From: a virus
Reading direction: 5' to 3' (one strand)
UHGV virus genome: UHGV-1838449
Length of the DNA: 17,388 bases
Under the pieces are notes generated by a model. That model did no database searches and was not told the origin of the DNA. It saw nothing but the letters and a program-made list of their open reading frames with translations. Shown here piece after piece: positions 12,673-17,388 of this stretch; position 1 is the first letter of the stretch; each line of letters starts with the position of its first letter. Both the position numbers and the translations under genes were made by a program.

Positions 12673-13089
12673 ATGAAAAAACTAACCTTTGAAATTCGAT
12701 CTCCAGCACATCAGCAAAACGCTATTCACGCAGTACAGCAAATCCTTCCAGACCCAACCAAACCAATCGTAGTAACCATTCAGGAACGCAACCGCAGCAT
12801 TCGGCAAAATGCACGCCTTCACGCGATGCTATCTGAAATAAGTAAGAAGGCTACATATCATGGAAAAGCAAGAAATATTGAGTTTTGGAAGGGGTTATTC
12901 GTTTCTGGTTGGCAGATTGCAACCAACCAGCACCCTGAGATTATATCAGGGTTAGAAGGTGAGCTAATAAACATCAGAGAGAGTACGGCGACTCTATCTG
13001 TAAAAAAAATATCCGAAATAATGGACTACATAGAAGCATATTGTGCCATGAACTCAATTCATCTTAGCGAATGGAGGAATTATGATTGA
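12673..13089 (+). CDS. ninB: NinB (Orf-family recombination mediator); N-terminus lambda-identical, remainder divergent, 3' end interrupted by an HNH gene
   Basis: From the ATG at 12673 (GGAGAGGG site): MKKLTFEIRSPAHQQNAIHAVQQILPDPTKPIVVTIQERNRS matches lambda NinB as I recall it. The rest is NinB-like but divergent and AT-rich. Ends ...HLSEWRNYD; the ancestral tail appears on the next ORF. Confidence 0.85.
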   Translation: MKKLTFEIRSPAHQQNAIHAVQQILPDPTKPIVVTIQERNRSIRQNARLHAMLSEISKKATYHGKARNIEFWKGLFVSGWQIATNQHPEIISGLEGELINIRESTATLSVKKISEIMDYIEAYCAMNSIHLSEWRNYD

Positions 13090-13684
13090 GGTTTGGGTAG
13101 ATATCGAAGGAATTCCATTTTATCAGGTTAGCAATAAAGGAAATTTCAGGTCTATTACGAGGGAAATTACAGTAACATCAACCAGACAGAGGCCATATAA
13201 GAAAATAATTAATGGCACTAGCGTAAAACCATTCAAGTGCAAGTCGACAGGATATCTTCAAATAAAGGTATACGGTAAGAAATACAGCGCCCACAGGATA
13301 GTTGCGAAAGCATTCTGTACAGGGTTCTGTGATGGCTTGGTAGTTAATCACAAAAATGGGCAAAGAGATGACAATAGGGCTGAAAACCTTGAATGGGTAT
13401 CACATTCTGAAAACTCAAAGCACGGATATAAACAAAATGGAAGAATACCTATATCGCTAGGTAAATTTAGTGGTGATCATCCTGCCAGTAAAGCTGTTAT
13501 TTCTACTGACATGAAAACTGGGGAGGAGGTTTATTATGAAGCAGCTATGGATGCTGTCAGAGAAGGATTTGATAGTTCGTCAATTAGTCGTTGCTGTAAT
13601 GGCGAAAGCTCATATCACAAAGGAAGATTCTGGCGATTTGCAAATGAAACAATGAAAGCGCGATGGGGAGACCGGGCAGCATGA
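13082..13684 (+). CDS. HNH homing-type endonuclease (NUMOD4 plus HNH_3 motifs) inserted into the 3' end of ninB
   Basis: 200 aa. N-terminal [20 protein letters not shown] (NUMOD4-like) and HNH core [25 protein letters not shown]-rich. Start codon is embedded in the last codons of ninB; the last 9 residues KARWGDRAA match the lambda NinB C-terminus as I recall it; stop overlaps the ninD ATG (ATGA). Confidence 0.8.
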
Positions 13685-15417: not shown

Positions 15418-15602
15418 ACGCCACAATTCAAACGATACCAGAGCTTCTTATCCAGACACGAGGCAATCAGACCGAAGTGGCAAGGATGCTTTCCTGCGCA
15501 AGAGGAACAGTGCTCAAGTACAACCGAGACAGCAAAGGCGAGCGTCATGTAATAGTTAACGGCGTCCTGATGGTCACGCCAGGAAAAAAGGGAAGACGAT
15601 GA
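15414..15602 (+). CDS. ninH: NinH-like small DNA-binding protein
   Basis: 62 aa; KTIPELLIQTRGNQTEVARMLSCARGTVLKY parallels lambda NinH (KTIPDMLVEAYGNQTEVARRLKCSRGTVRKY). Confidence 0.65.
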   Translation: MNATIQTIPELLIQTRGNQTEVARMLSCARGTVLKYNRDSKGERHVIVNGVLMVTPGKKGRR

Positions 15603-16117
15603 GCATAAGAGAGCTAAACCTCACCAAAGAACAGCACGATTGGCTGAATGGCTGGCTTGAGCTGTGGGGCGCATGGGTTTATTCAGGTCGTCTGGAAAAG
15701 CGCATGAGCAGCGTAATAGCGAAGTTCATGGAGAGCGTAGAGCCGGGAAGAGTTATGACAAGGCCAATGTGTAATGATGATGATGGAATGTTGATTTCTC
15801 AGGTCGTCGATTCCGTCATGTACATTGACAAGAAAGCCTTTGGCATCCTCCTCAGCTACTACGCTCATGGTTCATCTAAGCGAGCAATTGCATCCTACTA
15901 TCACGCGACTGCAAAGCCACGCAAGATGTGTGGACGTGGTGGCGAGGGATGGAGAAAACCTTCACTGGCAACCTGTAGAAACGAAATTGACGACATCCTG
16001 AAAGCGTCGTTATTTGTTTTGTACCAACCAATGCAAAATGCTTTCAAAATGCGTAAACGTGTTGAGAAAGTTAAGCATGTTGCTGTTAAAAGCCTTGACA
16101 TGCAATTAGCCATTTAG
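15599..16117 (+). CDS. Q: Late-gene antiterminator Q (phage 82/933W-type family, not lambda Q-type)
   Basis: 172 aa. LELWGAWV...PMCNDDDGMLISQVV...LLSYYAHG parallels my recollection of the 933W/82-type Q family. Last nin-region gene, immediately followed by a strong promoter and a short terminated transcript. Confidence 0.7.
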   Translation: MSIRELNLTKEQHDWLNGWLELWGAWVYSGRLEKRMSSVIAKFMESVEPGRVMTRPMCNDDDGMLISQVVDSVMYIDKKAFGILLSYYAHGSSKRAIASYYHATAKPRKMCGRGGEGWRKPSLATCRNEIDDILKASLFVLYQPMQNAFKMRKRVEKVKHVAVKSLDMQLAI

Positions 16118-16124
16118 CCATAAT
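16095..16124 (+). promoter_or_regulatory. Late promoter pR-prime
   Basis: -35 TTGACA (16095..16100), 17 to 18-nt spacer, -10 CATAAT (16119..16124), overlapping the last codons of Q. Confidence 0.55.
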
Positions 16125-16165
16125 ATTCACATATGCTGCTGCTTTTGCATTCAGCAACCATCACA

Positions 16166-16190
16166 AGCCCACCTCCTGTGGGCTTTTTTG
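16166..16190 (+). terminator. tR-prime intrinsic terminator (target of Q antitermination)
   Basis: Hairpin AAGCCCAC-CTCCT-GTGGGCTT followed by TTTTTT, about 35 to 60 nt downstream of the pR-prime -10. Confidence 0.7.
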
Positions 16191-16311
16191 CATTCGCGTG
16201 CAATCAAAACAAGAGTCTTAGTGATATGGGCCTGAGATATGGTGGTGGAAACATCGCTCCGCTCTTGGCTGTCATATCTACGCGAACAGGCTCTATCCCT
16301 AAGGTAAAGCG

Positions 16312-16824
16312 ATGAAAGAAATAAAATTAACGCCAGAAATGGTGCTTTCTGTTGTTGATTACAATCCATCATCAGGCGACTTTCACTGGAGATGGAGGCG
16401 GGGAAGAGAGAGGACCACTTTGACATGGAACTCTCGTTTTGCTTTCAAGAAATGCTCATCAATAAATTCTGATGGGTATTTAATGATTATGATTAATGGT
16501 AAAGCATACCCTGCTCACAGACTGGCATGGTTGATTGTTTATGGCACCATGCCCGATGGTTTTATTGATCACATCAACAGGGTAAGAACAGATAACCGGA
16601 TATCAAATCTTCGTCTTGTCACTCATTCCGAAAATATGCAGAACAGGAAAATTCAGAAGAATAATAAATCTGGATACCGTGGCGTGTCTTGGGATGCTAA
16701 GTACGGGAAATGGAGAGCAAGAATTAATGCGTCTGGAAAGTGTATTAACCTTGGATACCATGATACTGCCGAACTTGCCGCTGCGGCTTTTGAGGCCGCC
16801 AGAATGAAATATCATACCGTTTAA
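16312..16824 (+). CDS. HNH endonuclease with C-terminal AP2 DNA-binding domain (homing-endonuclease-like)
   Basis: 170 aa. HNH core DHINRVRTDNRISNLRLVTHSENMQN and AP2-like SGYRGVSWDAKYGKWRARINASGKCINLGYHDTAELAAAAFEAA. Sits just downstream of tR-prime. Confidence 0.8.
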   Translation: MKEIKLTPEMVLSVVDYNPSSGDFHWRWRRGRERTTLTWNSRFAFKKCSSINSDGYLMIMINGKAYPAHRLAWLIVYGTMPDGFIDHINRVRTDNRISNLRLVTHSENMQNRKIQKNNKSGYRGVSWDAKYGKWRARINASGKCINLGYHDTAELAAAAFEAARMKYHTV

Positions 16825-16836
16825 AGATGTAAGCTG

Positions 16837-16878
16837 CCGTTAGTGACTCTTAAGTTGCAACGGTGGCTTTTTTATTTG
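16837..16878 (+). terminator. Weak intrinsic terminator candidate after the HNH-AP2 gene
   Basis: 5-bp stem CCGTT/AACGG with a long loop, followed 4 nt later by CTTTTTTATTT. Stem is marginal. Confidence 0.35.
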
Positions 16879-17315
16879 CACAACAGGTAAGAGCATTGAA
16901 CCCGCAGACCTCGCGGAATTGGTGAAAGGTGCCGCGCAGTGCTCTTATCGTTGTGGTGAATGCACAGGCTGATGTGTAAGGGCAAGAATCTTTCGCTGGA
17001 TTCGGTGTGGCCACGTAGCCCGCTGTAGGCAGTTGCAGCAAACCGGAGATCAGCACCGGTCGCCACAATCCAAACTGAGCCGTAGCCACTGGCTATCATG
17101 AATTCATCGGTGATAGTTACGCTGCGGCCTTCTACACATGACCTTCGTGAAAGCGGGTAGCAAGAGGTTGCGCTAACAACCTCCTGCCGTTTTGCCCGTG
17201 CATATCGGTCACGAACAAATCTGATTACTAAACACAGTAGCCTGGATTTGTTCTATCAGTAATCGACCTTATTCCTAATTAAATAGAGCAAATCCCCTCA
17301 ATGAAGGGGTAGAGC

Positions 17316-17388
17316 ATGTACCGTATGGACAAAATCAGAGAATGGTTCAGTTACAGCTTCGGAGGACTGACTGCGATGGGTGGCATTC
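17316..17388 (+). CDS. Partial ORF (5' end only, runs off the window), possibly the first late/lysis gene
   Basis: ATG at 17316 with a GAAGGGG site; MYRMDKIREWFSYSFGGLTAMGGI... is Gly-rich and hydrophobic, consistent with but not diagnostic of a holin N-terminus. Confidence 0.3.
   Translation, partial: MYRMDKIREWFSYSFGGLTAMGGI

Follow-up and report, generated by a model that had tools for sequence, protein, structure and literature searches.

How can a nuclease gene of the selfish kind be lodged where transcription of an essential operon under antitermination control begins, and still leave that operon working? This question is raised by the virus genome UHGV-1838449, analyzed here as a single window of 17,388 nucleotides, in which a gene for an HNH endonuclease with an AP2 domain follows the late promoter pR' of a phage-21-type antitermination system. 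Our comparisons bear out the observations of the original prediction at every point and its reading for the most part, and they show in addition that the gene belongs to a 705-bp cassette that separates the promoter from its native leader and brings a replacement leader, a terminator and a structured RNA with it. Overall, we favor, with reasonable though not full confidence, the picture of a selfish-type nuclease cassette specialized for the late-transcript start of Q21-family phages and equipped with an RNA leader; for homing-type behavior of the cassette, the balance is roughly even. Coordinates are those of the window, and its features lie on the + strand unless stated otherwise.

The promoter pR' spans 16095..16124, with a -35 hexamer TTGACA (16095-16100), an 18-nt spacer, and a -10 hexamer CATAAT (16119-16124). 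A promoter scan classed it as near-consensus sigma-70 (11 of 12 matches), and HK75 and Sf6 have this sequence labeled pR' in their records. The cassette (16125..16829) is the block missing from phages that have the same pR' and no homing endonuclease gene (HEG-minus phages), namely, HK75, Sf6, CUS-3, and about 90% of the others. As seen by comparing the window and HK629 with HK75, Sf6, and CUS-3, the block starts right after CATAAT and stops just before TAAGCTGCCGTTAGTGACTCTTAAGTTGCAACGGTGGCTTTTTT. In the three HEG-minus phages, TAAGCTGCCGTTAGTGACTCTTAAGTTGCAACGGTGGCTTTTTT comes 7 bases past the -10 hexamer, where the annotation gives the phage-21-type qut region and tR'. Two E. coli prophages were also included in the alignments. 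The uninterrupted 21-type sequence, CATAAT-TAGAAGG-TAAGCTGCC, is split in a cassette carrier, and the Sf6 record labels the split stretch a 21-type qut site. The native leader and terminator survive 3' of the HNH stop codon (16830-16873) as a displaced remnant, TAAGCT (16830-35), and a hairpin with its T tract (16833-16873). In every lineage except one, a 21-type hairpin comes next after the HNH stop codon.

The cassette supplies a replacement late leader, here called leader B (16131..16189), which has a probable start near 16131 and reads ATTCACATATGCTGCTGC.... At the offset where the native 21-type leader has TAAGCT, leader B has the invariant -10-like hexamer TATGCT (16132-16137), which we infer to be a sigma-dependent pause element (SDPE), and ACATATGCTGCT is invariant in all seven Q-linked lineages of the cassette. 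A terminator scan detected an intrinsic terminator, tR'B, with a stem at 16165-16185 and a T tract to 16189, and two intrinsic terminators (16165-16189 and the native 16833-16873) stand between pR' and the late genes. The original prediction had described 16095-16878 as holding the first gene after pR' and tR'. The gene is indeed the first open reading frame (ORF) past pR' and a terminator, but its place is not simply 3' of the native tR'. The stated end, 16878, includes the second terminator (16833-16873), which by alignment is the native phage-21-type tR'. In the absence of Q, pR' should give a terminated leader B transcript of ~60 nt (16131-16189) with a conserved 5' hairpin. A terminated leader transcript of this kind would be analogous to lambda 6S RNA or to the StxS small RNA of Stx phages. 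The HK629 record sets its "pR'" past the first terminator (L001 3679-3684), unlike the HK75 and Sf6 annotation, and this is probably an annotation error. A small ORF in the leader, 16133..16315, had no Pfam hit and was rejected as coding because one-base indels between lineages break its frame.

The Q gene itself (15599..16117) is of the phage-21 type (Phage_antitermQ, 1.3e-25), and its 3' end overlaps pR' and the putative Q-binding element (QBE). The protein is a close relative of Q21, matching the chains of PDB entries 6P18 and 6JNX with E values of about 1e-91 (5e-91 for 6P18). According to a study of Q21 (bioRxiv 10.1101/651190), the QBE consists of two 8-bp subsites in direct repeat and lies in the -40..-1 stretch of PR'21; that stretch together with an SDPE at its native position suffices for the formation of Q21-loaded complexes. 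The window has a direct repeat between the -35 and -10 hexamers, ATTAGCCA (16105-16112) followed by TTTAGCCA (16113-16120), and we infer that it is the QBE. This assignment is supported because different direct repeats accompany different Q variants: TTAGCCA twice, TTGAACA/ATGAGCA, TTTACCT/TTTACCC, and TTGAGCA twice were found among the window, L008, L015, L058, and L060. Q proteins and their binding elements therefore look as if they co-vary, and the Q proteins of the cassette-bearing lineages are 65-98% identical. In a second Q/QBE background (L008 type compared with L065), the switch point is the same, right after the -10 hexamer, and a cassette-free allele of the L008 background was located in IMG/VR. 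A search of complete E. coli genomes with the L008-type locus returned only the window-type cassette, at about 76% identity.

The arrangement is assumed to work because HK629, which has it, was deposited as a complete phage genome. Like HK629, the Hafnia phage yong1 was deposited as a complete genome with an isolation host given, and both carry leader B; in deletion derivatives, including the isolated phage yong1, leader B is joined directly to downstream sequence. With its replacement pause element and terminator, the cassette may serve as a clean natural experiment on the requirements of Q21 downstream of +1, and its anatomy suggests how a nuclease gene could be accommodated at this position.

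Next to tR'B, and extending to the HNH start codon, lies a structured 5' untranslated region RNA of ~120 nt (16188..16311; covariance model hit window 16184-16329, 176 bits). The predicted fold begins with a hairpin, P0 (16188-92 with 16199-203), whose loop (16193-98) pairs with 16281-86 to form the pseudoknot PK1. A second pseudoknot, PK2, joins 16210-15 to 16262-67. The body of the structure is a long three-part helix made of P1 (16216-26 with 16294-304), P2 (16228-34 with 16287-93), and P3 (16235-46 with 16268-79), topped by a small apical hairpin, P4 (16247-49 with 16258-60). The 3' strand of P1 holds the Shine-Dalgarno sequence AAGG (16301-04). From ACATATGCTGCT to the start codon, identity across lineages is 85-96%, as against 59-78% for the coding sequence. 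Among the seven HNH lineages, pairing holds in 98.6% of cells, with little variation between them. Since the Shine-Dalgarno sequence is paired in a conserved, covarying RNA structure, the fold argues for gating of HNH translation by the leader, and the strong expression first expected of anything in this slot may not extend to the protein. On the + strand of 16125-16312, no promoter-like site reached the scan threshold, and thus no promoter of its own, as a moron would have, was detected for the cassette. Across members of the RNA family described below, base pairing is what is conserved, with nothing promoter-like.

A covariance model was built from the leaders of the HNH lineages, with the pseudoknots left out of the aligning model. 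Relatives were recovered 5' of KilA-N genes in 36 Klebsiella-type viral contigs and phage Kp4856-1, downstream of Rz/Rz1 in HK75, 5' of a Rha gene in yong1 and, at a lower score, 5' of a KilA-N gene in the E. coli 317 prophage. A second RNA-leader site was present in 23 of 100 loci, which had been fetched for pR' only. Members include L007:5369-5524, L002:3816-3972 (HK75), L273:1801-1952 (phi80), L274:1201-1338 (epsilon34), and L235:1949-2104 (Kp4856-1). One subtype occurs in 157 phage records, including HK620, HK106, CUS-3, epsilon34, and 73 Stx2a-converting phages, as well as in 947 of 5426 E. coli genomes; in phi80 it lies directly upstream of rha. The annotated start of phi80 rha (L273 1899) falls inside the RNA element and is probably an annotation error. 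Nearly all members lie no more than about 20 nt past an intrinsic terminator, the gene 3' of each encodes a KilA-N, Rha, ANT (KilAC), HNH_3, or GIY-YIG protein, and in every subtype the 3' strand of P1 holds a Shine-Dalgarno sequence (AAGG or AAAGG).

The wider family is what reveals the covariation. Among 30 distinct members, 94% of cells were paired, compared with 36-54% when the partners were slid, and compensatory double changes were found in 32 of 46 pairs; none of 500 shuffles reached the observed values. PK1 is present in eight to nine mutually complementary versions (UUCGCG/CGCGAA, UUCUCG/CGAGAA, UUCACC/GGUGAA, UCUCAC/GUGAGA, UCGCAC/GUGCGA, CCGCA/UGCGG, and others) and PK2 in seven to eight (CAAGAG/CUCUUG, CGAGAG/CUCUCG, CCCGAG/CUCGGG, CCAAAGA/UCUUUGG, and CAUCGA/UCGAUG among them). 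G-U pairs are abundant and fit the sense strand only. Because subtypes have part of their sequence in common, a score that set complementarity within a subtype's own pseudoknots against that between subtypes ("self versus non-self") was uninformative; the list of versions and counts per column took its place. A search of the whole window against Rfam 15 gave nothing at the gathering score and only chance-level hits at E up to 10, and the HK75, Kp4856-1, and yong1 members had no Rfam match. Full-text literature searches, which included the literal sequence, retrieved no description of the RNA or of the gene's position, although a description elsewhere is possible. Overall, the leader seems to represent a widespread and apparently undescribed, uncurated family of double-pseudoknot RNAs.

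Tentatively, such leaders of ~120-130 nt might constitute a new class of trans-responsive regulatory RNA, either a riboswitch-like sensor or a docking site for a phage or host factor, which lambdoid phages would use as a plug-in control module behind a terminator. If this were true, the leader would keep the HNH, GIY-YIG, Rha, KilA-N, and ANT genes, whose products are potentially toxic, silent until a defined late signal, and this could also account for earlier findings, among them the conditional toxicity of phi80 and P22 rha. The HNH cassette would then be a homing element with a captured RNA module and a substitute qut site and terminator, and thus able to live inside an essential promoter. 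A regulatory leader of any kind would bear on the timing and restraint of antirepressor-like proteins and homing nucleases in temperate phages. Of the two points of interest at this locus, we consider the RNA family the more important, and it can be tested directly in the classical systems phi80 rha and HK629.

The gene downstream of the leader (16312..16824) has 170 codons, and its 170-amino-acid product was predicted from the outset to be an HNH endonuclease with an AP2 domain. Both Pfam profiles exceed their curated cut-offs, and the PHROG assignment and the predicted fold agree. HNH_3 (PF13392) covers residues 66-110 (nt 16507-16641; E 2.1e-18, 66.1 bits against a cut-off of 24.8), AP2 (PF00847) covers residues 120-167 (nt 16669-16812; E 1.6e-8, 35.1 bits, barely over the cut-off of 33.3), and the protein matches PHROG 99, "HNH endonuclease," at 1e-73. 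An AlphaFold model computed with 37 homologues as input had a predicted local distance difference test (pLDDT) score of 87.5. For its N-terminal two-thirds (~1-110), the best structural match is I-HmuI (1u3e; Foldseek probability 1.0, E 2.7e-3; 107 columns superposed at a root mean square deviation [rmsd] of 3.4 A), while the C-terminal third, with the three-stranded sheet plus helix of an AP2 domain, resembles the plant AP2/ERF proteins AtERF1 (1gcc; rmsd 1.7 A, 52 columns) and TEM1 (7et5). A sequence search of the PDB concurs on AP2 (WRI1, 7wq5, at 2e-6).

Residues D86, H87, N89, N99, and N111, which comprise the catalytic Asp-His pair and the metal-ligand Asn positions, are invariant among the 37 homologues. 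Across the seven Q-linked lineages, the DHINR..DNR..NLR motif is unchanged, and the sole departure in the THS(E/Q)NMQNRK motif is S to F in L060. The HRLAWL, DH, DNR, NLR, and EN boxes, described for the HNN-AP2 endonucleases of Xanthomonas phages (PMC2248197), are all present, and the combination of HNH and AP2 defines a recognized homing endonuclease gene family (PMC10448857). The ratio of nonsynonymous to synonymous substitution rates is 0.06-0.07, with synonymous sites saturated between lineages, which indicates that the protein is under strong purifying selection. The product therefore looks like an intact and apparently active free-standing endonuclease of HNH(HNN)-AP2 type, akin to the homing endonucleases of phages. 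Defense-system models (PADLOC) returned only generic "homing endonuclease" profiles. Two gene calls of 199 amino acids for the HNH gene (P0004 and P0010) run into the structured leader and are probable annotation errors.

How often is the cassette found where it could be? Among 5426 complete E. coli genomes, the block is present in 41, full length and at least 98.7% identical in 39 of them, whereas the same Q/pR' is present in 775, about 39 of which carry the cassette. An IMG/VR sample of 120 21-type pR' sites comprised 105 with the native leader, 12 with the cassette, and 3 with leader B but without the gene. Occupancy is thus about 5-10% of Q21-type prophages, spread over many Q haplotypes. 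A metagenome scan added five further loci, the typeable ones being the window-type cassette, and an 18-mer of the leader searched against species-representative genomes hit 48 loci, all of them chance matches. The gene is accordingly sporadic and not a core component of this phage group; core status would have refuted the original prediction by its own terms.

Among HEG-bearing loci, 31 left-flank haplotypes (500 nt) were distinguished, each 0-17 substitutions (most 0-7) from a HEG-minus haplotype; these distances leave out L039, whose flank is apparently frameshifted. Presence and absence at one precise site therefore vary among close relatives, as expected of a HEG. Nucleotide diversity in the cassette is 0.005, compared with 0.028 in the Q gene beside it. 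Leader B unaccompanied by the gene was found in the WCHEC115106 prophage, L099, L175, L100, and yong1 (L008 type). These sites mostly look like deletions between the GGCTTTTTT ends of the two terminators; L100, one of the three leader-B-only sites from IMG/VR, instead breaks off inside tR'B. In NCTC9112 and the PhiR12 phages, the HNH gene is cut after 23 codons and other cargo follows. There, leader B, the RNA leader, and the 23 HNH codons are fused to unrelated sequence (NCTC9112, L005 2501-3300; PhiR12_1, L234 2001-2753), and next comes a SASA/nanS-like esterase gene (annotated in PhiR12_1 as a CP-933V-type unknown protein). By their sequence, these fusions show further turnover of the slot. 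Considering distribution, haplotypes, and scars together, the HNH gene is sporadic and has been gained, lost, or recombined many times. The proposal that the interval between Q and the lysis genes is a variable cargo slot also stands: relatives hold tRNA genes, nothing, another HNH gene, or a nanS-like esterase gene.

At greater distances the association with Q persists. Protein relatives at 60-76% identity to the window protein, from E. coli, Serratia, Pantoea, and metagenomes, are all encoded ~220 nt past a Q21-family Q gene, while a relative at 48% is not located after such a gene. Because relatives down to 57-60% keep the position and the gene is under purifying selection, the association seems to be long-standing and site-specialized. 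It is therefore more than a casual, recent invasion by a homing endonuclease.

How might such a cassette operate? Q's binding site stays beside the promoter, and a Q21-type Q would load at the replacement pause element, after which the Q-modified polymerase would pass both terminators. The nuclease mRNA would be made only late after induction and would therefore come from Q-modified read-through of both terminators, with the RNA fold further limiting translation. The enzyme might then nick or cut 21-type pR'/leader DNA of cassette-free phages, which the insertion interrupts in the carrier genome, and repair from a cassette-bearing genome would copy the cassette in, by intron-less homing or marker exclusion. 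The leader RNA is one of many double-pseudoknot leaders that lie after terminators and before genes for potentially toxic DNA-binding proteins and nucleases in lambdoid late operons.

Several results weigh against this scheme. No co-conversion gradient was detected in 40-nt windows of the left flank, and cassette-bearing and cassette-free phages freely share the polymorphisms found in the 40 nt nearest the left junction; ordinary recombination at a conserved boundary could explain these shared polymorphisms equally well. The native hairpin is intact beside the cassette, and a recognition site lying wholly inside it would leave the carrier without immunity. Identities of Q and HNH proteins co-diverge roughly, which could be plain vertical linkage. 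The pause-element reading of TATGCT comes from its position alone. Regarding the RNA, its thermodynamic stability is unremarkable for its composition (z = -1.5), support for the fold comes from covariation, some of it measured on an alignment that had been fitted to the nested helices, and pairing of a Shine-Dalgarno sequence does not by itself prove regulation.

The strongest competing explanation is that the cassette is passive cargo, a "moron" moved by ordinary homologous or illegitimate recombination at its boundaries (pR' on the left and the 21-type hairpin on the right), with the nuclease idle in its own spread and providing some other benefit, e.g., late attack on competing phage or host DNA. 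We regard this as a real but distinctly less probable account. It fits the missing co-conversion gradient and the flank polymorphisms shared up to the junction, the flanks are annotated as "boundary sequences" in the CUS-3 record, and strong purifying selection suits a useful function. Moreover, the same RNA leader precedes non-nuclease KilA-N, Rha, and ANT genes that vary from phage to phage, and for this reason cassette exchange needs no nuclease. However, known homing endonucleases share the HNH-AP2 architecture, the insertion point is exact to the base in two Q backgrounds, and diversity in the cassette is one-fifth of that in the neighboring gene. In addition, HNH_3, second HNH-AP2, and GIY-YIG genes cluster near Q and behind the leader in related phages.

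A domesticated nuclease with a late function, e.g., in DNA processing or packaging like the terminase-associated HNH protein of HK97-type phages, would suit the first place in the late operon, the purifying selection, and the position held stable over deep divergence. Nevertheless, the gene is missing from about 90% of phages that have this Q/pR', deletion derivatives exist (one of them in the deposited yong1 genome), lysis and packaging modules are varied (lambda-type S/R in HK629, other holins and Sf6-type or Terminase_2 elsewhere), and no terminase gene is adjacent. An HK97 gp74-like terminase-associated role was rejected on gene position and sporadic distribution, and the late-function account as a whole is very improbable.

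We give equally little credence to a protein that acts mainly as an AP2-driven, sequence-specific regulator, at pR' or at the promoter of a competitor, its nuclease domain being vestigial. Co-option of AP2 domains, which bind DNA, into regulatory roles has been described (PMC10448857), and the companion genes behind the RNA leader (Rha, KilA-N, and ANT) are regulator-like; against this, the catalytic D-H...N...N residues are invariant in the homologues and the seven lineages alike, and the HNH part models confidently onto I-HmuI. Finally, the leader could be a DNA-level element, a recombination linker or protein-binding site conserved through gene conversion, as its near invariance and scant covariation among HNH-type leaders and the conserved intergenic "boundary sequences" known in these phages might suggest, but the compensatory double changes in the wider family, the complementary versions of pseudoknots kept outside the aligning model, the G-U pairs tolerated on the sense strand only, and the Shine-Dalgarno sequence always held in the paired 3' strand make this hardly credible.

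The window indeed contains a second HNH gene, as originally noted. It is free-standing and unrelated to the first (13082..13684), lies between ninB and the next nin genes, and matches the PADLOC "homing endonuclease" profile at 2.3e-26. Its product is I-HmuI-like, because it combines NUMOD4, HNH_3, and an I-HmuI NUMOD-like module. The gene has no copy of the RNA leader and is not part of the cassette. It is also sporadic, because the E. coli 317 prophage, a 100% match to the window over the Q-pR' and cassette segments compared, has NinE directly after NinB. Nuclease genes flank Q on both sides, since HNH_3 or HNH-AP2 genes are also found just upstream of Q or ninG in related phages (L008 and L010, 1776-2297; L015 and L017, 1544-2098; L016, 1042-1518; L058, 959-1549; L060, 1651-2178), one of them overlapping the Q start. 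L099, which has the leader-B-only scar, encodes a different HNH_3 protein of 169 amino acids farther along the Q-to-lysis interval, behind a different RNA-leader subtype (L099:3856-4003, - strand); judging from its sequence, it is a second, independent nuclease in the slot.

Some observations concern the neighborhood of the cassette. ARAGORN detected no tRNA genes in the window, including the Q-to-lysis interval. The segment 16875-17100, from the native tR' to conserved sequence before the holin gene, aligns only partially with relatives; Sf6 and others carry tRNA-Asn and tRNA-Thr at the equivalent place, and HK75 has a weak, sub-threshold tRNA/tmRNA-like Rfam hit. Because the relatives have tRNAs there and the window has none, the segment looks like a degraded or replaced tRNA segment. 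A mosaic joint precedes the holin gene at ~17295-17388, where the window leaves HK629, HK75, and Sf6 at CCCCTCAATGAAGGGG; its holin (MYRMDKIREW...) is as in the E. coli 317 prophage. In the early-left region, genes on the - strand (1136-2071 and 2364-2861) encode a dATP/dGTP pyrophosphohydrolase and DUF551 protein and a Mom-like protein, the match of the latter being weak and sub-threshold (E 5.5e-5).

Comparison with known systems places the gene first. The HNH-AP2 gene is not itself new, being already annotated in phage HK629 (JQ182735) as HK629_061, "HNH endonuclease," with a product 99.4% identical to that of the window. HK629 has the same order of Q, leader, gene, and terminator, with 98.3% DNA identity over 1.7 kb, and differs in that the window has another holin downstream (mosaic joint near 17300). 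It is the sole close copy among 50,697 phage records, in which all other matches are below 60% identity; a homologue of HK629_061 is also present in the E. coli E2348/69 prophage. The best of the more distant matches are the HNN-AP2 proteins of Xp10 and Xop411, at 41-45% identity to the window protein. Xp10, OP1, and Xop411 group I proteins and the ICP1 "IPA-HNH" share its domain order, its boxes, and the AP2 motif RGV..W.A.I. Their genes, however, are scattered in lytic genomes and often decayed, whereas the lineage of the window has a fixed site after a Q21-type Q gene, purifying selection, and a leader with a candidate pause element, a terminator, and the RNA. I-HmuI (1U3E), the nicking enzyme of Bacillus phage SPO1, has an alignable HNH motif and is a His-Me finger enzyme with an extended DNA-binding surface; it differs in being intron encoded and in having NUMOD and helix-turn-helix modules instead of AP2, and its sequence similarity is marginal (E 0.2).

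For the RNA, two comparisons are of interest. In T4, the ribosome-binding sites of I-TevI and of the seg and mob genes are hidden by hairpins in read-through transcripts, and the cassette resembles them in that a selfish nuclease gene has its ribosome-binding site paired in such a transcript. The T4 hairpins are simple and are relieved by a late promoter inside, whereas here the fold is of ~120 nt with two pseudoknots, it precedes non-nuclease genes too, and no internal promoter was found. The preQ1-II, preQ1-III, and SAM-II riboswitches are pseudoknotted, with the Shine-Dalgarno sequence in the closing helix. The leader RNA shares their compact pseudoknotted fold but has no Rfam match and lies after terminators in phage late operons.

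With respect to position, the stx genes and tRNAs of Stx phages occupy the same cargo slot downstream of pR' and tR', and the tRNA-Asn/Thr cargo of phage 21 and Sf6, like the cassette, lies between Q/pR' and the lysis genes and is reached by the Q-modified polymerase. In contrast to the stx and tRNA cargo, which sits downstream of the native tR', the cassette lies upstream of it, at the very start of the transcript, with a leader and terminator of its own.

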